Shown: positions 14,501 to 57,810 of the stretch, in pieces
Layout: each line of letters begins with the position of its first letter
Numbering within the stretch: position 1 is the stretch's first letter
Source of the DNA: Escherichia phage PSD2002
Sequence record: OK335775.1
Length of the DNA stretch: 64,000 nucleotides
Strand: one strand, 5' to 3'
Notes under the pieces: model-generated
What the model was told of the DNA's origin: nothing
Database searches by the model: none
Seen by the model: the letters and a program-made list of their open reading frames with translations, nothing else
Program-made: the position numbers and the translations under genes

Positions 14501-17500
14501 TAATTTTTACCTGAGTTGGAACTTTAGGGTCTCTAGGATTTCCAATACCGTCTTTAAGACGCTTATCAACCAGTGCACGCCAATTGGCAAAGGTCACCAC
14601 ACTTTGGTCAAACAATGGACTATGCTTTTTAATACGTTCGTGTGGTAATTGACCTTGGAATACAGAGAAATCATTTTCTGCATCATAATCGGCAGGAATA
14701 TCAAACGGTTCTCCTGCTTTAGGTCCTACGTTGTACGTTGGAGCACCTGTACGAGGGTCTCGTTCTATATTACCATCAAAACCTATTACAGCAACTCTAT
14801 CATACCATTCAGATGGCAAACCTGAGTCCCATTTATAGTTCTTAAGGATATTAATAATAGTTTCTGTATGTTTTAGCGTTAAACCTACGTTAACAAACAT
14901 AGAAAGCAAAGTTATACCTACAAAGCCGAAACCTACTGGATGAACAAATCTCAAAACATCGTTGCGGTAACGAGAGGTAGGGAGATTAGACTTAATAGTC
15001 ATAACATAATAAGAACGGTTACGGTTGATATAGTCGATATTGTTACTCAAAAGCTCTTTACCACGTACACCCCGAACAATCATACCCTTGAACGAAGTAC
15101 GTTCAGATTTAATTTCCTGACCGACTATAAAACGACCTAAAAGGTTATGAATGGTTAAACGCCATTGCAGTTTACCTTGTTTATAGTTACGTTCAATATA
15201 AGTAACATTACTACGTCCTGTAGGAGTATAAATGGTTTGGCCGACAATATCTTCACTGATATTATCAGATTCTACGATGATATCATATTCGATAGAGTTC
15301 TTGGACTCGATATCAATTTCGACATCTTCGTTGTAAAGCAATTTAAACAGGAATTTATATGAAGCTTCGGTACCTTTAGTAGACCAAAAATCGCTTTGGC
15401 GCGCCTGGAAAAAACGAACAACTTCATCGCGTTTTTCCTTCGACAAATAGATATTACGCTTATAGATTTCTGACCACAAATATTCCCATGAATCTTCTTC
15501 ACGTGGGTATTGGTTACGAATAAGATTCAACAAATTATTATAGTGTGTACCAGAACCATCACTAATAAATTGGAGATAGTATTCACAGAATTTTTCAAAG
15601 TTAGAATCTTGAAGCAAATAACTATCTGGAATCATTTTAACCAGTAAAGGCTGGAGGTCTGGGTCCTGCTCACCAACTTCCTCTTTAGGTTTCCATGGGA
15701 TTTCATGTTCTTGGTTTTGCAATTCTGCCGTAAACATAATTTCTTTAGGCTTCCAAATAACACGGACTTCATCACGCACGCGATAGTCAAATTCAAAATA
15801 TCCAACCAATTCGCCTGTAGATTTGTGAATCATCATTCCGGAAGAATATTTCTTAAAGCCATTAAACTCTATATTAGGAGATGTGACTTTACAAAAACCT
15901 TTATTCCAAATCTCATGAACAATACGTTCAGGTGAAGAACCACTGTTCAGGTCGATAATTTTCTGGTATAAAGCATCATTATAAACAACCATCGCATGGT
16001 CGCCAGTAGTAATCCATGAACGGGTTCCATCACGACGAGACCAACTAAAGAATGGTTCGGCATAATAAGCCATACGCCCAGGTTTAAATTCTTTGAAATC
16101 GGATTTAGAGTTAGACCTAAAACTCATCATCAAATAATGTTTATCGTGAATCCATTGTTCATCTTTAACATATTTAACGGCGGAGGTGACAATTTCAGGG
16201 TATTCCAAAGGAAGCTCAGAATCAACCTCTACTTCATATCTAAAGTTGCTTGAACTGAAAAATAATTCCTCTCCGTCGGTAGACATGCTGGTATATCCAT
16301 GCTCTATACGACGACGTTCTTCTTCTGTGTTTCCAAATACACGAGTCCATGTATCAGTTGAAGTGTCTAACCAATAAACACCTTTGGATTCAGAATCAAC
16401 CACATTGGATTCGACCGTAGGGTCCATTTTTTCTTCTTTAACTTCACCTGTAATTAAAGCAAATGTATGGCCTTGGATAGAATCTAATTTATAACAAACA
16501 GCTTTAGGGTTCCCTGTGATAGTCGAATATCCGCTTTCAAATATCTTCTCTCCATAAGTCGGAGAACTAGGGTCGGTGTCTATAGGGGCTTCAGATGTTT
16601 TTGCTTTATAAACTCTGTCTCTACCGGCAACATAAATGAATTCATCAGATGCGCACATGGCCTCGGCAATAGTAGAAATAGGTAAAGGAAGCTTTGCATA
16701 TGAACCGAATATCTCAATTTCAAATGGAAGGTCGATATCGCTACCTATTTTAGCAAAAGTTACATCTTGGGAACTAAATCTAACGTCATCAGCAGACCAA
16801 CGAATATCACTTGATTTACGTCCGTAAAATATTTGGTCATAACCTAGAACATAAGTGGTCGTGTCGGTTTGGTAGTGTACCGTACGTGAAACAGGGTTAC
16901 CTACTCGGTCATTAAACAAACGGATATAATGCCAGTTCTGCCCTTTATCATTAGAAACCTTAGCGGTACTTTGGAATCTTTCTAAAAGGTAAAGTACGCC
17001 ACCGAGTTCCATTAAAATAGAACGTTTAGGGTCTTTACAAACCGCTTGGATGCTTCCTTGGATTTCATGGAAACGGTCAGCTTTTAAAACATAATTTGAT
17101 ATAGATGACAAATGCGAATATGCAGGGGTAAAGTTAAAATCTTCACTCATCAAAGAAGCCATAATGGCGTCAGTATTAAAGTTCACATAATTCTGATTAT
17201 TTTTTGTGAATTTTTCTTCAATAAATTTATTAGACAAAGTGAATTCGCGCATATGCTCAAATGTATATGCGTTGGTAGAGAAAGTTTCAAATTCTTCAGT
17301 GTAAACCCATTCGGACTGCTCAAACCCCTGGGCGGCCACCGCAACTCGCATTTTATAAAATGAATTAGGAGAAATGAATGCCTCTTCAAACCATTCGTTA
17401 TTAGGGGTGTAACCTAAATTTCTCCAAAATAATCTATCGTCGGGAATTTCTACACCCGCATCCTTCGTTTGGGCCAGTTCTACGAAATAATAGAAGTTGG

Positions 17501-27818: not shown

Positions 27819-27841
27819 AAGGAGCCACAAAGCTCCTTTTT
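27819..27841 (+). terminator. rho-independent terminator after ipI
   Basis: AAGGAGC-cacaaa-GCTCCTT followed by TTTT. Confidence 0.7.
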
Positions 27842-27858
27842 GTATCTAAACAAAAGGT

Positions 27859-27905
27859 GTTTACTTTCCTGGATAGCCGTGATACTATAGCCCTATCAAA
27901 ACAAA
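27859..27905 (+). promoter_or_regulatory. early promoter cassette (PeSL-like): GTTTAC -35, TGATACTAT extended -10, CCTATCAA
   Basis: GTTTAC 27859-27864, 18-nt spacer, TACTAT 27883-27888; member of the reiterated cassette family. Confidence 0.6.
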
Positions 27906-27925
27906 CTAACCAAACGGAAATCAAA

Positions 27926-28426: not shown

Positions 28427-28475
28427 GTTTACAACGGGCTTTAGCCGTGATACTATAGCCCTATCAAAACAAATG
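28427..28475 (+). promoter_or_regulatory. early promoter cassette (PeSL-like)
   Basis: GTTTAC 28427-28432; TGATACTATAGCCCTATCAA; SD GGAGA before ATG 28493. Confidence 0.6.
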
Positions 28476-28492
28476 AGTGAATGGAGAATAAA

Positions 28493-29797: not shown

Positions 29798-29874
29798 GGC
29801 CCTGTAGCTCAATGGTTAGCAGCAGTCCCCTCATAAGGGAAAGGTTACCAGTTCAAATCTGGTCCGGGTCACCA
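29798..29874 (+). tRNA. tRNA, anticodon CAU (Met, or Ile if lysidine-modified)
   Basis: Hand-folded cloverleaf: acceptor GGCCCTG/CCGGGTC, D-loop AATGGTTAG, anticodon loop CU-CAU-AA, T-arm ACCAG-TTCAAAT-CTGGT, encoded CCA. Confidence 0.7.
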
Positions 29875-29879
29875 ACTAT

Positions 29880-29954
29880 GTCCCGCTGGTGTAATGGATA
29901 GCATACGATCCTTCTAAGTTTGCGGTCCTGGTTCGATCCCAGGGCGGGATACCA
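29880..29954 (+). tRNA. tRNA-Arg (anticodon UCU)
   Basis: Hand-folded: acceptor GTCCCGC/GCGGGAT, anticodon loop CU-UCU-AA, T-arm CCTGG-TTCGATC-CCAGG, encoded CCA; T4 also encodes tRNA-Arg(UCU). Confidence 0.75.
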
Positions 29955-30335
29955 AATGAAGACTATTATATAGTCAAGCCGTCGTATGAAGACTGATTAC
30001 CAGCATTCACCGGCGCAACAAACAAGAAACCGGGTCGCTACCGGTAAGTCGTCGGACTGATGTTCCCTGAGTAAGGACTGGCATTAACAAATCTTTACGA
30101 TCTGTTAACGTTCCCTTACATCACAGCAGAAACGGCGCACCGAATTATCGATTCGAGGAAATATCTTTGCCGTAAGCCGAGTAGCGTTTTTGACGGAACG
30201 TTCGGATATGGTCGAGATATGGCCTTTTAAAAATATTGAGTGGCGTCAACTACTTAATAACCGGGTTCGAATCCCGGCGTTTCGTACAAACACTTGCCTA
30301 GCAGGTGGAACCCCGACAAGGTTACCCTAGGTTAA
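29955..30335 (+). ncRNA. candidate structured stable RNA(s) downstream of tRNAs (contains an orphan tRNA-like T-arm)
   Basis: About 380 nt with no ORF of 60 aa or more in a gene-dense genome; perfect T-arm CCGGG-TTCGAAT-CCCGG at 30261-30277; ends at a terminator; T4 has stable RNAs C/D in its tRNA region. Confidence 0.3.
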
Positions 30336-31029: not shown

Positions 31030-31078
31030 TGTTTACACCTCCTTTAAACATGATACTATAGACCTATCAAAACAACAG
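31030..31078 (+). promoter_or_regulatory. early promoter cassette (PeSL-like)
   Basis: GTTTAC 31030-31035, 17-nt spacer, TGATACTATAGACCTATCAA, SD GGAGAG. Confidence 0.6.
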
Positions 31079-31094
31079 AGTGAAGGAGAGTAAA

Positions 31095-36307: not shown

Positions 36308-36352
36308 GTGTACAAGGTCTATAGGTGTGATACTATAGACCTATCAAAACAA
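36308..36352 (+). promoter_or_regulatory. early promoter cassette (PeSL-like) with 9-bp inverted repeat GGTCTATAG/CTATAGACC
   Basis: GTGTAC -35 variant 36308-36313; TGATACTATAGACCTATCAA; SD GGAGA. Confidence 0.55.
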
Positions 36353-36373
36353 CAGAGTGAAATGGAGAATAAA

Positions 36374-40138: not shown

Positions 40139-40162
40139 TAAAGCCTATACTTGATAAAAGTT

Positions 40163-40213
40163 GTTTACATCTCCTGTAGTCATGATACTATAGACCTATC
40201 AACTACAGGAGAT
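40163..40213 (+). promoter_or_regulatory. early promoter cassette (PeSL-like) with 12-bp inverted repeat ATCTCCTGTAGT/ACTACAGGAGAT enclosing the -10
   Basis: GTTTAC 40163-40168; TGATACTATAGACCTATCA; right arm of repeat supplies the SD GGAG for denV. Confidence 0.65.
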
Positions 40214-40218
40214 TAAAA

Positions 40219-40635
40219 ATGACTCGTATCAACCTTACCTTAGTATCTGAATTGGCTGACCAACACTTAATGGCTGAATATCGTGAATTACCACGTGTTT
40301 TCGGTGCAGTTCGTAAGCATGTTGCTAATGGTAAACGTGTCCGTGATTTCAAAATCAGTCCTACTTTTATCCTTGGTACAGGTCATGTTACATTCTTTTA
40401 CGATAAGCTTGAATTTTTACGTAAGCGACAAATTGAGCTTATAGCCGAATGTTTAAAACGTGGTTTTAATATCAAGGATACTACGGTCCAGGACATTAGT
40501 GATATTCCTCAGGAATTCCGTGGCGACTATACTCCACACGAAGCTTCTATTGCTATATCTCAGGCCCGTTTGGACGAAAAAATTGCACAACGCCCTACCT
40601 GGTACAAACATTATGGTAAGGCGATTTATGCATAA
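40219..40635 (+). CDS. denV: endonuclease V (pyrimidine-dimer DNA glycosylase)
   Basis: 138 aa; [50 protein letters not shown]... essentially identical to recalled T4 DenV. Confidence 0.95.
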
Positions 40636-40776
40636 GGGAGCAACCTGGACCTCATAATTCAGTGAGGGACTCCCGCCAACCTGTAATAAGGTCGAGCCCA
40701 AGTGCGGTAATGGGTAAATGCAGAAAGGGACGAATTATGTGCCAAGGAATGGCCCACAACTTAAAAAGAGACAATT

Positions 40777-41322
40777 ATGAAAACGTTTTTAACCGGTAGT
40801 TATCTATCCCTGATGAATGCTTTTGCAAACCATTCTGATGCTAGAGTAGAACACATTTGTAATAGTGGGTTTTATGTACCCGATTCACAAACCCTGTTTA
40901 AAGAATGCTGCACCTTAAAACTTGATGGTGGGCGCCAATCCGGTAAAACTAAAGCAGTATCCATTTTTGCGTCTGATTGGTTAGCTGATGGCGGCTCTAT
41001 TGTTATTTTGTCTAATTGCGCCGCGTATGCTAATGTTTCGGCTACTGCAATCCGAAAGGAATATTTTAATAACCATACAGAAAGTATTAAGTATCGTTTG
41101 TACACTGATTCTGTTCGTAGTTTTATTGGTAATACTGCATGCAAATTCCGTGGATTATCGCTTTCACGTGTTCTGTATATAATTGATGAGCCTGTTAAAA
41201 CACCCGATATGGATAAGATTTATGATGCCCATATAAAGGCGGTGCAACATTGCTGTCATGCATCATGTGTCGAAACCAATCAAACTGCACGTCCTCTGTT
41301 CTTTGTGATAGGAATGCAATGA
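40777..41322 (+). CDS. small P-loop NTPase
   Basis: Walker A GGRQSGKT and Walker B-like VLYIIDEP; 181 aa. Confidence 0.55.
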   Translation: MKTFLTGSYLSLMNAFANHSDARVEHICNSGFYVPDSQTLFKECCTLKLDGGRQSGKTKAVSIFASDWLADGGSIVILSNCAAYANVSATAIRKEYFNNHTESIKYRLYTDSVRSFIGNTACKFRGLSLSRVLYIIDEPVKTPDMDKIYDAHIKAVQHCCHASCVETNQTARPLFFVIGMQ

Positions 41323-41615
41323 TGACTGATGAAGAACTTTTTGAGTTCTGTTATTTCTCACGTAAGGTCCGAAGAGAGGACCTTACTGCAAATTTCGAGT
41401 ATGCTTATTTCTATCCATTAGAATATGTATTCATGACAGGCCCCTTTAAGGGCTCTCGTTTTAGATGTCATGCACCAAGCATCCGATTAATGAAACAGGT
41501 TCCTTACTTTACTCTGGAATTTATTTCTGGGCCGTGTAAGGGTATTATCACTCGCAGTCTCTTAACTTATGACCAAGAGATTCATATGATTTCTGACTGG
41601 AAAAAATATGTCTAA
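41319..41615 (+). CDS. hypothetical protein
   Basis: ORF from MMTDEELFEF; ATGA-type coupling. Confidence 0.45.
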   Translation: MMTDEELFEFCYFSRKVRREDLTANFEYAYFYPLEYVFMTGPFKGSRFRCHAPSIRLMKQVPYFTLEFISGPCKGIITRSLLTYDQEIHMISDWKKYV

Positions 41616-41826
41616 ATTGACAATTGAAGGCTCTGATGAAGCTCTGAAAAGATTTGTTGAATGGTTTAATGGACCAGGTGAACAAGACTTTCTGGAAGTC
41701 TGGGATGGCGGTCGGTGGAACGGTAAAGAAATGATTTACCCGACTACCTATATCTCCGTGCAAGGTTGGACTGAAGGCCTTCGTTTGGTAGAATATGATA
41801 TCGCAACTGGCGAGGAAGTGAAATGA
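41608..41826 (+). CDS. hypothetical protein
   Basis: 72-aa ORF. Confidence 0.45.
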   Translation: MSKLTIEGSDEALKRFVEWFNGPGEQDFLEVWDGGRWNGKEMIYPTTYISVQGWTEGLRLVEYDIATGEEVK

Positions 41827-42101
41827 TTGAAGATATAAAGGGTTATAAACCACATACCGACGATAAAATCGGTAAAGTGAATGCTATTAAAGATGCCGAA
41901 ATTCGGTTAGGGCTGATGTTTAAAGCTCTGGAAGAAGAACATGTTACTCATTATATGAACTTAGATACCGAAGAGGTTTCTGAACAAGAACTAGACCAGG
42001 CTCATGAACGCATCACCCAGATTCGTAATGCAATTGACCGTCTGAAAGAAGCAAGCATGTGGGCGTGTCGCTCTGTGTTCCAACCGGAAGAAAAGTACTA
42101 A
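41823..42101 (+). CDS. hypothetical helical protein (occupies the vs.3-vs.8 slot)
   Basis: 92-aa ORF between denV and regB. Confidence 0.45.
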   Translation: MIEDIKGYKPHTDDKIGKVNAIKDAEIRLGLMFKALEEEHVTHYMNLDTEEVSEQELDQAHERITQIRNAIDRLKEASMWACRSVFQPEEKY

Positions 42102-42107
42102 AGAGCA

Positions 42108-42160
42108 GTTTACATCTCCTGTAGACGTGGTACTATAGACCTATCAACTACAGGAGATTA
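42108..42160 (+). promoter_or_regulatory. early promoter cassette (PeSL-like), near-identical to the denV cassette
   Basis: GTTTAC-ATCTCCTGTAG-acgtgg-TACTATAGACCTATCAA-CTACAGGAGAT; GTTTAC 42108-42113. Confidence 0.65.
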
Positions 42161-42164
42161 CAAA

Positions 42165-42623
42165 ATGTCAGAAATTAATTCAGAAGTATTCATCCGCCGC
42201 AACAAATTACGTCGTCAGTTCGAAACCGAATTCCGCGAACTGAACACGTCCATCAAAAAAGCCGCCGTTAAGAGCGGAGTCCCGGCCTTCTTTATTAAGT
42301 ACTCTAATCACTTGTTGGACCGTGCTATCCAACGTGAAATCGACGAAAAATACGTTTTTGCTTTATTCAAGCAACTCCATAACCATGTTAAAGAAATCCA
42401 TGAATTTTTAATCCAGGAACCTCTGCCTGATGTAGAATCCGAAATTGTCCCTGGTAAAGTGTATCGTCCATTGCGTCTCGAAATTACCGATAAAACCTTA
42501 TGGCTAGGTATGACCGTAGACCGTAAACATCCTGATAAAGGATATTCCCTTAAATGTCGTATGGCATTTGTTAACTCTAAACGTTTAGAAGGTAAAACCA
42601 GCACGAAAGTAATTTACTTGTGA
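42165..42623 (+). CDS. regB: RegB sequence-specific endoribonuclease
   Basis: EVFIRRNKLRRQFETEFRE...HLLDRAIQREIDEKYVF...LRLEITDKTLWLG matches recalled T4 RegB. Confidence 0.9.
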   Translation: MSEINSEVFIRRNKLRRQFETEFRELNTSIKKAAVKSGVPAFFIKYSNHLLDRAIQREIDEKYVFALFKQLHNHVKEIHEFLIQEPLPDVESEIVPGKVYRPLRLEITDKTLWLGMTVDRKHPDKGYSLKCRMAFVNSKRLEGKTSTKVIYL

Positions 42624-42630
42624 GGACAGT

Positions 42631-43377
42631 ATGGAAACTATAAAATATCCATATGACTACTATAAAATAATAAATGACGCCTTATCTAGGGATACACCTA
42701 ATGATGCCTATACAGAAAAGCACCATATAATACCGAGTTGCGTTGGTGGTCCTGACACTCAAGACAATTTAGTTGAGCTTTATGCTGACGAACATTATTT
42801 GGCCCATATGTATCTAGCCAAAGCTAATCCAAACCACTATGGGTTGAATTTTGCTTGGCTAAATATGAGCTCTACTTCAAATTCAAAACAAAGGTCTTAT
42901 TTTGTAGATTCTGAAAATTATAAGTTGGCTAAAGAATCATTTTCAAAATTGCAATCTATTAATAAAATTTTATTTTTCTCTAAAAAGGAAAATAGGGCTG
43001 CTCATTCAATGGCTTTAATAAAGTATTTTGAAAAGGAAGGCTCTAAAGAACGGCTCAAAGAAATTTTAAATTCGCCAAAAGTAAAAGCTAAAATGTCTGA
43101 AAAACGGGTTAAGTATTTTGAAAATCCTGAAAATAGACAAAAATTTAAAGCCATACAAAATTCTAAAGAAACTATAGAAAGGAAAAAAGCCTCTTTGCGG
43201 AAATCCCCTATATGGCATGAACCGATGTATTCACAATTATATAAATTATGGGTAGATAATAATAAACTCAAGTGTGGAAGATTTAGTAAAATCGCAATTA
43301 AGAACGGCTTCCCTAATGTAGATTACCGAGGACTTATTGATTATGATTTTTCTAAAAAAAACTTAAATATTCTTTAA
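42631..43377 (+). CDS. free-standing HNH-family homing endonuclease (mob-like)
   Basis: HNH motif EKHHIIPSCVGGPDTQDNLVELYADEHYLAH; Lys-rich repeat region in C-terminus; AT-rich codon usage; inserted between regB and vs.1. Confidence 0.7.
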   Translation: METIKYPYDYYKIINDALSRDTPNDAYTEKHHIIPSCVGGPDTQDNLVELYADEHYLAHMYLAKANPNHYGLNFAWLNMSSTSNSKQRSYFVDSENYKLAKESFSKLQSINKILFFSKKENRAAHSMALIKYFEKEGSKERLKEILNSPKVKAKMSEKRVKYFENPENRQKFKAIQNSKETIERKKASLRKSPIWHEPMYSQLYKLWVDNNKLKCGRFSKIAIKNGFPNVDYRGLIDYDFSKKNLNIL

Positions 43378-43379
43378 TA

Positions 43380-43901
43380 GTGGCTATTATGTGTGGTTCG
43401 TTTTCTGTAAGTGCAGCAGAACCCGTATTTACAGAAACCCAGCTTGATAATTTACATTATGCGTATGCTTTCGGTGAACAATACCAAAAGTCGGGAAAGT
43501 TCAAAGAAAACCCTAATCAAAAAGGATTAGGATATATTATGGCCGGATTACTATGGCAGGAATCATCCGCCGGAATTAATCAGGGTTTAAATAAAGATAA
43601 GCACCATGCTTATGGCATGTTCCAAAATTACTTGCCTACTTTAAGAAGTCGTGTTCAACAGGTAGGTTGGAAGATGTCTGATAAAGAAATAATTCGTATG
43701 GTCCAAAAACGACAGAACAGTGCCTCTTGGGCCTACATTGAACTGTCTTATTGGATTGATGTTCACAAAGGTGACCTGAGAAAAGCGATTGCTTCTTATA
43801 ATGCGGGCTGGAACGTCAAAGTAGGCAGTAAATATGCTTCTGAAGTTCTAGAAAAGGCCAATTATCTAAAATCTAAAAAGATGTTTGAGGCGGTATATTA
43901 A
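43380..43901 (+). CDS. vs.1-like protein (lytic transglycosylase-like)
   Basis: 173 aa, GTG start per ORF track; position after regB as T4 vs.1. Confidence 0.5.
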   Translation: MAIMCGSFSVSAAEPVFTETQLDNLHYAYAFGEQYQKSGKFKENPNQKGLGYIMAGLLWQESSAGINQGLNKDKHHAYGMFQNYLPTLRSRVQQVGWKMSDKEIIRMVQKRQNSASWAYIELSYWIDVHKGDLRKAIASYNAGWNVKVGSKYASEVLEKANYLKSKKMFEAVY

Positions 43902-46712: not shown

Positions 46713-46716
46713 TCAA

Positions 46717-46744
46717 AGGTCTCACTTCGGTGGGACCTTTTTTC
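46717..46744 (+). terminator. rho-independent terminator
   Basis: AGGTCTCAC-ttcg-GTGGGACCT followed by TTTTT. Confidence 0.75.
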
Positions 46745-46752
46745 GTTTAGGT

Positions 46753-46805
46753 GTTTACATCCTCTAGGAACATGATACTATAGACCTATCAACTAATGAG
46801 GAGAA
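46753..46805 (+). promoter_or_regulatory. early promoter cassette (PeSL-like)
   Basis: GTTTAC 46753-46758; TGATACTATAGACCTATCAA; SD GAGGAG. Confidence 0.6.
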
Positions 46806-46809
46806 CAAA

Positions 46810-49593: not shown

Positions 49594-49595
49594 TA

Positions 49596-49617
49596 AAAGG
49601 CCTTCGGGCCTTTTTTT
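49596..49617 (+). terminator. rho-independent terminator
   Basis: AAAGGCC-ttcg-GGCC followed by TTTTTTT. Confidence 0.75.
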
Positions 49618-49636
49618 GGGTTTAGTGCAAAAAAGA

Positions 49637-49680
49637 GTTTACACTCTCGTAGAGCATGTTATTATGGACCTATCAAATCT
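49637..49680 (+). promoter_or_regulatory. early promoter cassette (variant: GTTTAC, TGTTATTATGGACCTATCAA)
   Basis: GTTTAC 49637-49642; 17-nt spacer; TATTAT. Confidence 0.55.
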
Positions 49681-49702
49681 ACTGAGTGAAATGGAGAATA
49701 TA

Positions 49703-51037: not shown

Positions 51038-51090
51038 GTTTACATCTCCAGTAGAAATGATACTATAGACCTATCAACTACTGGAGGTTA
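51038..51090 (+). promoter_or_regulatory. early promoter cassette (PeSL-like) with inverted repeat TCTCCAGTAG/CTACTGGAGG
   Basis: GTTTAC 51038-51043; TGATACTATAGACCTATCAA. Confidence 0.6.
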
Positions 51091-51092
51091 AC

Positions 51093-57752: not shown

Positions 57753-57805
57753 GTTTACTTCCTCTCCTCACGTGTTATAGTCTATCCTATCAACACATGA
57801 GGAGA
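57753..57805 (+). promoter_or_regulatory. early promoter cassette (variant) with inverted repeat TCCTCACGTG/CACATGAGGA
   Basis: GTTTAC 57753-57758; TGTTATAGTCTATCCTATCAA; SD GAGGAG. Confidence 0.55.
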
Positions 57806-57810
57806 ACATT

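Follow-up and report, generated by a model that had tools for sequence, protein, structure and literature searches.

The promoter-early stem-loop (PeSL) cassettes of T4-type phages were originally described for phi1/RB49, and the definition was then applied to PST/T4 and nt-1/KVP40. In the papers concerned, the stem is taken to terminate or attenuate transcription and possibly to be a target of recombination, with the Shine-Dalgarno (SD) sequence and translation going unmentioned (PMC2839356, PMC4122927). As related in these two papers, conserved promoter-containing motifs also flank the internal protein (IP) loci of T-even phages (Repoila et al. 1994, via PMC2839356, PMC4122927). Furthermore, a hairpin switch that involves a late promoter is established in T4 for e, soc, 49 and I-TevI, the effect on e being 100-fold, and according to one review all known cases in which a promoter is placed in a hairpin are late genes (PMC2988022). 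T4 early promoters are known to have extra conserved positions beyond the elements contacted by RNA polymerase (review, PMC2988021). For T4 denV, the legend to Fig. 5 of a primer extension study with a denV primer assigns the reverse-transcriptase stops to promoters named motB and mobD.5, and the denV start is not clearly documented in that legend (PMC1702504). In the present study, we analyzed a stretch of 64,000 nucleotides from Escherichia phage PSD2002 (sequence record OK335775.1; hereafter "the window", the positions of which are used throughout), focusing on its reiterated early-promoter cassettes and especially on the two nearly identical copies that precede denV and regB. Potential stem-loops ahead of T4 ipIII, ipII, denV and orf61.9 (= regB) were reportedly noted by Valerie et al. 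1986 (NAR 14:8637).

The window is 93-97% identical to the Dhakavirus phages vB_EcoM_FB, WG01, QL01 and MX01, which identifies it as DNA of a Dhakavirus (a JS98/WG01-like T4 relative), and its gene order (ipIII, denV, vs.8 ... regB, vs.1, vs, tk, ... nrdC.x, 49, 55) is that of the T4 early region. The open reading frame (ORF) at 40219-40635 encodes DenV (Pfam Pyr_excise) and the ORF at 42165-42623 encodes RegB (Pfam REGB_T4, 6e-69). With a probability of roughly 0.65, we propose that the cassettes ahead of these two genes provide translational insulation, in the sense that the SD would be buried in RNA reading through from upstream and free in RNA initiated at the cassette. According to this proposal, each cassette is a strong sigma70 early promoter fused to a short SD-bearing leader, and at denV, regB, nrdC.8 and an ORF at 57.8 kb the promoter's own spacer encodes an anti-SD arm. 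RNA entering from upstream would carry both arms and fold into a stem of 11-12 bp that hides the SD, and translation of the downstream gene would then be blocked on this read-through RNA. RNA started at the cassette, about 18 nt past the 5' arm, would be without the stem and would be translated, and the respective proteins would be made only while their own immediate-early promoter fires. Such confined expression would fit RegB, a nuclease, because RegB synthesis is known to be tightly limited; the T4 literature describes RegB production as tightly regulated and RegB as being inhibited by RNA secondary structure. In a secondary and less well supported role, the near-identity of the cassettes would also provide short homology patches for exchange between loci.

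The denV cassette begins with the -35 hexamer GTTTAC (40163-40168, + strand, as are all cassette features given here), which was found by promoter scan and belongs to a promoter that T4 denV shares. The anti-SD 5' arm ATCTCCTGTAGT (40169-40180) is located in the -35/-10 spacer, 5' of the predicted start, and its stem has a folding energy of −20.7 kcal/mol (z −5.2). It is followed by the TGn and -10 elements, TGATACTAT (40183-40191, with the -10 TACTAT at 40186-40191), which open the core TGATACTATAGACCTATCAA (40183-40202) comprising the extended -10, the discriminator and the predicted +1 at about 40198. The 3' arm ACTACAGGAGAT (40202-40213) holds the SD GGAG (40208-40211), and the ATG is located at 40219. 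The regB cassette has the same anatomy, with a GTTTAC hexamer from the promoter scan (42108-42113), the anti-SD 5' arm ATCTCCTGTAG in the promoter spacer (42114-42124; −18.3 kcal/mol, z −3.3), the core TGGTACTATAGACCTATCAA with one mismatch (42128-42147, the -10 TACTAT at 42131-42136 and the predicted +1 at about 42143), and the 3' arm CTACAGGAGAT (42148-42158), which holds the SD GGAG (42153-42156) ahead of the ATG at 42165. A previous reading of the DNA by a model that saw the letters and a list of ORFs (hereafter the sequence-only reading) had described the two copies as nearly identical and their spacers as reverse complements of the SD region, and both descriptions proved accurate: the cassettes are identical at 49 of 52 positions, the longest exact run being 30 bp, the similarity ends at the cassette edges where the flanks are unrelated, and ATCTCCTGTAGT/ACTACAGGAGAT and ATCTCCTGTAG/CTACAGGAGAT are the respective complementary pairs.

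These two cassettes are members of a larger set. In a search of the window, the core TGATACTATAGACCTATCAA was found nine times at up to three mismatches, always on the + strand, with starts at 27880, 28448, 31051, 36328, 40183, 42128, 46773, 49657 (three mismatches) and 51058, and it had no matches in 100 dinucleotide-preserving shuffles of the window. Together with site 57753, a looser variant that has the same layout and a diverged core and that we count as the tenth cassette, this bears out the claim of at least ten repeated sites. The core copies conform to (G)TTTAC[A/T]-N17/18-TACTAT or TATTAT with a TG upstream of the -10, and an SD and an ATG are present within 17-27 nt 3' of the core at each copy. 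The sequence-only reading had given the layout as GTTTAC, a spacer of 17-18 nt and then TGATAC; more precisely, GTTTAC is followed by 14-15 nt and TGATACTAT, which indeed gives a -35/-10 spacer of 17-18 nt. The -35 positions that it had listed agree with ours, except that the third site starts at 31031 and not at 31030, and that the hexamer at 36308 is GTGTAC and not GTTTAC. Six further early-type promoters without the core are present in the window (31362, 31820, 39460, 53610, 55983 and 58880). The nine-copy core spans 27.8-51.1 kb and the early-type promoters overall span 27.8-58.9 kb, all on the + strand, and the orientation of all cassettes is that of early transcription. At most sites, the 20 nt 5' of the -35 have an AT content of 65-90%, compared to 60.7% for the window, the enrichment being weak at 46753, 49637, 55983 and 58880. 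On the basis of this consensus (GTTTAC, 17-18 nt, TGnTACTAT), the repeats are strong T-even-type sigma70 early promoters, each followed by an SD and an ATG, which agrees with what had been claimed for them.

The transcription starts of denV and regB were predicted from sigma70 geometry at about 7 nt 3' of the -10, which places them about 18 nt 3' of the 5' arm at both genes. Since the 5' arm is located upstream of the predicted start, the stem is expected only on read-through RNA; in line with this, RNA from the predicted +1 folds at about 0 to −1.4 kcal/mol and read-through RNA at −18 to −21 kcal/mol, and sites 51038 and 57753 show the same behavior as denV and regB. Strong SD-occluding stems were predicted for four copies in the window, namely 40163, 42108, 51038 and 57753 (z −3.3 to −5.7, −18 to −22 kcal/mol). 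The third of these is the nrdC.8 cassette (51038-51092), with the stem ATCTCCAGTAG / CTACTGGAGGT (−19.3 kcal/mol, z −4.3), and the fourth is the variant cassette with the -10 TATAGT ahead of a 60-aa ORF (57753-57810), with the stem CTCTCCTCA / TGAGGAGA(A) (−21.6 kcal/mol, z −5.7). Stems with z-values in the same range were also obtained at 36308 and 31362. In another group of sites, comprising 36308 and 28427 as well as three promoters without the core (31362, 31820 and 58880), pairing is between the spacer and the sequence just 3' of the -10, and the SD is left free. Specifically, the cassette with the GTGTAC hexamer (36308-36373) has the promoter-internal stem GGTCTATAG / CTATAGACC (−15.4 kcal/mol, z −3.3), and in the trna.4 cassette (28427-28492), where the stem is weak or not significant, the spacer pairs with the core just 3' of the -10. 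Anti-SD pairing is weak at 31031, 46753, 49637 and 27859; for example, the e.8 cassette (31031-31094) occludes its SD only weakly, through the long-range stem ACCTCCTT / AAGGAG(A)G with a z-value of −1.3. The proposal of the sequence-only reading that read-through RNA sequesters the SD is therefore narrowed: the position of the 5' arm and the folding predict it for four copies, and the remainder have another stem or almost none. SD occlusion would thus apply to a subset of the cassettes, about 4 of the 10 listed, and not to all ten.

Evidence that the pairing matters comes from its evolution. A scan of IMG/VR for the core yielded 108 loci with 113 distinct cassettes, in which several complementary arm types recur: ATCTCCTGTAG / CTACAGGAGAT, ATCTCCATTAG / CTAATGGAGAT, ATCTCCAGTAG / CTACTGGAGGT, TTCTCCTCATG / CATGAGGAGAA, TTCTCCTCTGGTT / AACCAGAGGAGAA and TTTCCTTG / CAAGGAGA. 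For 49 unselected short-leader cassettes, 66.2% of the cells in the 11 pairs of the outer stem were paired as compared to 55.8% after shuffling (0/500), the covariation score was 0.315 as compared to 0.178 after shuffling (0/500) and 0.10-0.18 for slid partner columns, and double-sided changes were observed at 9 of the 11 stem pairs. When spacers and leaders were re-paired among 49 arm-based clusters, the native mean energy was never reached (0/20000); the clustering was based on the arms alone, as whole-cassette clustering at 80% similarity gave eight clusters owing to the shared core. Moreover, anti-SD motifs (CTCC/CCTC/TCCT) are present in 9 of 16 window spacers, with 5.6% expected (P = 5e-8). 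It is extremely improbable that the complementarity is a functionless by-product of independent spacer and SD consensus sequences. A pyrimidine-rich spacer does pair weakly with any purine-rich SD, cross-pairings between arms average −5.3 kcal/mol, and the SD is nominally paired in about 70% of the minimum free energy (MFE) structures after mononucleotide shuffling of the pre-start segment, this baseline being the reason why energies were used instead of a measure of SD pairing with pre-start nucleotides. However, the pairing runs 5-10 bp past the SD and shows compensatory changes (CTGTAG/CTACAG, CATTAG/CTAATG, CAGTAG/CTACTG, CTCATG/CATGAG), the native energies are 8-14 kcal/mol better than the shuffled ones, and no permutation reached the native values. 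The covariation counts effectively refute the by-product explanation.

The orthologous genes of related phages lead to the same view. In T4, regB has the unrelated arms TTTTCCTCTTGACTG / CAGTTAAGAGGAGAA in the same geometry (−21.6 kcal/mol), and nrdC.8 has the different arms GTTCCTCTGTGGT / ACTACGGAGGAAC, again in the same geometry (−19.4 kcal/mol). The SD of regB is occluded in five of six lineages, T4 included, by arms of unrelated sequence. Among 34 distinct T4-like upstream regions of denV there are about 17 different arm pairs; the MFE of these regions ranges from −16 to −23 kcal/mol, as compared to −6 to −10 kcal/mol with the pre-start segment shuffled, and the 5' arm, which lies in the spacer in one geometry and consists of the end of the -10 plus the discriminator in the other, precedes the predicted start in every case. 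The denV genes of jumbo phages with TTGAC-type promoters are without the stem feature. For the promoter-internal stem, covariation in an alignment of the cassettes (alignment A1) did not reach significance, given that the core, which forms the 3' side of the stem, is invariant, and this stem is backed only by the core variants GACC/GGTC, GCCC/GGGC and TTACCC/GGGTA. Covariation and the turnover of arms among orthologues clearly show that the SD-directed pairing is kept by selection, and they mark the stems as selected features that target the SD at the level of RNA, or at least of structure. The argument for a role at the RNA level is that the SD forms the 3' arm in all cases and that the 5' arm lies upstream of the start without exception.

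The second of the two denV geometries deserves separate description. Here the 5' arm consists of the last bases of the -10 and the discriminator, as in the pairs TAGTGTTCTC / GAGAACACTA and GATGTCTTCC / GGAGGACATC, and it was found in many T4-like phages, at the loci L112 (MX01; reverse-complement 16540-16600), L134, L141, L142, L149, L156, L158, L166 and L168. In this geometry the 5' arm ends right at the predicted start, as it does in the late-promoter switch of T4 gene e.

It has been proposed for the PeSLs of phi1/RB49 that the stem-loops are transcription terminators or attenuators which shield each gene cassette against transcription from upstream, and a stem-loop of phi1 was shown to reduce lacZ expression to the same degree as rrnB T1 (Arbiol et al., PMC2839356), although a lacZ assay on that stem-loop cannot tell termination from translational occlusion. 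Canonical terminators, each a hairpin with a T-run, do precede three window cassettes. One composite (27819-27925) has an intrinsic terminator at 27819-27838 and a -35 at 27859, and lies ahead of an internal-protein gene (MKTYQEFITE...); a second (46715-46809) has an intrinsic terminator at 46715-46740 and a -35 at 46753, with an anti-SD pairing of 5 bp (z −1.0); and the third, a variant cassette ahead of nrdC.10 (49595-49702), has an intrinsic terminator at 49595-49614, a -35 at 49637 and a free SD (z −0.2). Such terminator-promoter composites recur in many relatives and match the way in which the T-even PeSL has been drawn. By contrast, A-rich sequence (GGAGATTAAAAATG) and no U-run is found 3' of the stems at denV, regB, nrdC.8 and 57753, and the loops of these stems measure 21-29 nt. 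Their 3' arms always track the SD, as does the arm at 31031 despite its long leader, and such tracking would not be required of a terminator. No hairpin with a T-run was found in our terminator scans at 40163, 42108, 51038 or 57753, and termination is a very unlikely function for the focal stems.

The identity of the occluded motif raises another explanation, in which the stem would mainly shield intergenic GGAG motifs on long transcripts from RegB cleavage or other processing, thereby stabilizing polycistronic early and middle mRNA instead of blocking translation. RegB cuts GGAG in the SDs of early mRNAs and is inhibited by structure, 16 RegB-resistant T4 RNAs have a structured GGAG, and the occluded motif, a GGAG with an A-rich tract on its 3' side, is similar to the RegB/S1 consensus GGAGRAYARAA. 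We nevertheless consider this role unlikely to be the main one: the GGAG of T4 denV is RegB-resistant through its 3' context and not through structure, and T4 denV still keeps the stem; the SD of the regB mRNA is itself a known site of cleavage; and the stems are also kept in phages and at loci with non-GGAG SDs (GAGG, AGGA). It should be noted that shielding from RegB is compatible with translational insulation.

A further possibility is that the inverted repeats act as DNA, be it as hairpin or cruciform targets, as homology patches for shuffling (the PeSL mini-circle model) or as tuners of promoter melting. The strong stems are almost purely Watson-Crick, which makes DNA hairpins equally possible, and mini-circles between PeSLs have been demonstrated in phi1/RB49. 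Several indels and replacements relative to FB, WG01 and MX01 are bounded by cassettes (42100-42103, 40153-40215, 28433-28446 and 27851-27872): in MX01, ipII and a different denV promoter replace window positions 40153-40215; FB has an extra ORF of 210 nt inserted at 42100-42103, directly 5' of the regB cassette; and WG01 has a unit of cassette, IP gene and cassette at the 28427 site. In addition, one IMG/VR genome has a chimeric nrdC.8 cassette in which a ATCTCCATTAG spacer is joined to a CTACTGGAGG arm, and resemblance of the regB cassette to that of denV is confined to the Dhakavirus lineage, which suggests ectopic conversion. A role at the DNA level would, however, not account for the constant use of the SD as 3' arm, nor for a 5' arm that in two different geometries is always found just upstream of the start, and with loops of 21-29 nt the extrusion of cruciforms is unlikely. 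Most of the indel breakpoints are not at cassettes (e.g. 40636, 42617-43439, 47244 and 56071); about 30% of the indel or replacement boundaries relative to FB, WG01 and MX01 touch a cassette, a figure that gives no clean statistic since events are shared among relatives. The suggestion of the sequence-only reading that the cassettes are mobile and the denV and regB copies good substrates for recombination is plausible and has indirect support from the indels at cassettes and the chimeric cassette, but the predicted denV-regB deletion junction is present in 0 of 50,697 phage records and the exact identity between the two copies does not exceed 30 bp. Action of the stems as DNA is quite unlikely to account for the pairing. 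The terminator, RegB-shielding and DNA-level explanations are less well supported than translational insulation, or complementary to it.

Several observations weigh against translational insulation. The start site is assumed from sigma70 geometry, and a strong SD-occluding stem is present in only 4 of the 10 core cassettes of the window. SD occlusion is not the sole reason for stems, because those at 36308 and 28427 pair with the core and leave the SD free, and the regB lineage L119-L121 has a promoter-internal stem only. G-U pairs outnumber A-C in the helices by 14 to 7, and by about 4 to 3 in the strong stems, which favors + strand RNA over DNA only weakly. Nine top stems lack good upstream terminators, and the occurrence of an occluding stem in place of an upstream terminator is no more than a trend (Fisher p-value = 0.23, Mann-Whitney p-value = 0.71). 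Templated correction of quasi-palindromes could help to keep the arms complementary in the absence of selection. Finally, the stop codon of acb2 (vs.4-like, 42099-42101) is located 13 nt 5' of the regB 5' arm, and ribosomes that terminate there might open part of the stem.

With regard to the genes around the two cassettes, the ORF that ends at this stop codon (41823-42101, + strand), directly 5' of the regB cassette, encodes an Acb2/Tad1 hairpin domain (Pfam PF24729, 4e-15). It corresponds to a vs.4/Acb2-type sponge directed against the cyclic oligonucleotide-based antiphage signaling system (anti-CBASS) and is located inside the block between the two near-identical cassettes. Directly 3' of regB, an ORF of 248 aa (42631-43377, + strand) has no Pfam match; it is also present in vB_EcoM_FB, about 97 nt are found instead in WG01 and MX01, and the boundaries of this indel (42617-43439) are away from any cassette. 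The vs.8-like protein encoded 3' of denV (ORF 40777-41322, + strand) has a weak, sub-threshold match to Terminase_6N, the N-terminal ATPase domain of the T4-type large terminase (E = 0.004, 17.3 bits against a cutoff of 22). Elsewhere in the window (29798-29951 and 30025-30286, + strand), homologues of the T4 stable RNAs rnaD (30025-30141, 87% identity) and rnaC (30148-30286, 98.6% identity) adjoin two tRNA genes, and at the gathering threshold Rfam gave only the tRNAs near these homologues.

The 141 nt between the denV stop codon and the vs.8-like ORF (40636-40776, + strand) form a GC-rich element that is conserved in 984 phage records, T4 included. The T4 annotation treats it as part of vs.8, namely the first 44 codons, although relatives do not keep the reading frame. 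The element has an invariant core, ACCTGTAATAAGGTCGAGCCCAAGTGCGGTAA, at 40679-40710 and two covarying helices, P1 (AAAGG/CCTTT, GGGAG/CTCCC, GGGAA/TTCCC, AAAGC/GCTTT) and P2 (CCCA/TGGG, CCCT/AGGG, CTGGT/GCCAG, ACTCA/TGAGT, ACGC/GCGT and others; permutation 0/20000). It has no match in Rfam and no similarity to T4 rnaC or rnaD, and folding of the single sequence was no better than that of shuffles. The extended core was also found in unrelated phage contigs of 46, 84 and 139 kb, sometimes near tRNA genes, and two T4-like IMG/VR contigs (L141 and L150) have tandem, diverged copies of the element 3' of denV, the second core being CCTGTAATAAGGCCAGTCCGCGACGGTAAGGGG. The element is a candidate for an undescribed structured RNA or cis-regulatory element, and it may be a more novel object than the cassettes in this interval.

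Beyond denV and regB, we would give even odds that anti-SD arms in promoters constitute a general and ancient switch by which a subset of T-even early genes is translated only from their own promoters, an early counterpart that mirrors the late-promoter hairpin switch. Synthesis of the regB, denV and nrdC.8 products, among others, would then be limited to the 2-3 min of immediate-early firing, and the same cistrons would be silent on delayed-early and middle read-through RNA; the switch might also gate the cleavage of their GGAG sites by RegB. Should the mechanism be real, gene order and read-through in the early region would not set protein output, since each cassette-led gene would be translated from its own promoter only. 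This would help to explain why certain early proteins, RegB among them, are shut off sharply, and it would also explain the insertion, loss and swapping of genes in early regions without disturbance of the expression of their neighbors; it would also make the cassettes ready-made, self-insulating expression units for phage engineering. The one point added to what has been published is how strong the evolutionary evidence is for the SD being the target of the stems. That the focal stems are very probably not terminators refines the published view of PeSLs, the practical gain being modest. In the literature searched, from which the older T4 literature was absent, we found no description of SD-occluding stems at early promoters; such occlusion may already stand in that older literature, and would otherwise be a new variant of a known mechanism.

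When compared with the described systems, the cassettes are of a kind already known, namely T4 early promoters or PeSL-like cassettes in a Dhakavirus. Like PeSLs (Arbiol et al. 2010, PMC2839356; Comeau et al. 2014, PMC4122927), they are reiterated intergenic units of about 50-100 bp that consist of an AT-rich tract, a sigma70-type early promoter and a stem-loop-forming sequence, followed by an SD and a start codon; they appear to cluster ahead of small accessory genes in the early, plastic part of the genome, some copies are located at indel boundaries between close relatives, and the T4/PST promoter consensus TTTACW-N17-TAYWAT fits the window sites exactly. They differ in that the published stems are G/C runs near the promoter in phi1/RB49 and lie upstream of the promoter in PST/T4, whereas the focal stems of the window span the -10 and the start, end on the SD and have no U-run, and true upstream terminators are present at only three window copies. 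The match to PeSLs that the sequence-only reading had drawn is one of architecture and not of published function, the published stem being a terminator or attenuator. The motifs that flank T-even IP loci have counterparts as well: IP-type genes (MKTYQEFITE leader; ipIII-like) lie 3' of cassettes 27859 and 39460, WG01 has its insertion at the 28427 site, and MX01 has ipII at the denV cassette. With respect to T4, its denV promoter shares both the 17-nt core and the arms (GTTTACATCTCCTGTAGGTATGATACTATAGACCTATCAACTACAGGAGAAC) with that of the window, and the denV cassette is ancient because T4 has both; T4 regB and nrdC.8 have SD-occluding stems in the geometry of the window. In the window, however, the regB promoter is replaced by a near-copy of the denV cassette, and the 20-nt core is more uniform across loci, T4 using TACTATACAACTATCAA at several sites. 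The proposed logic is that of the switches of T4 e, soc, 49, I-TevI and segB and of Aeh1 mobE, where the SD is likewise in a helix on upstream transcripts and a promoter in or just after the region of the 5' strand gives RNA that is without that strand and is translated. The known cases use late (gp55) promoters (TATAAATA) and delay expression, whereas the promoter in the window is of the early sigma70 type and is predicted to confine expression to the first minutes of infection, and the device is reiterated as part of a repeated cassette. The cassettes would thus work like the late-promoter hairpin switches without being members of that family.

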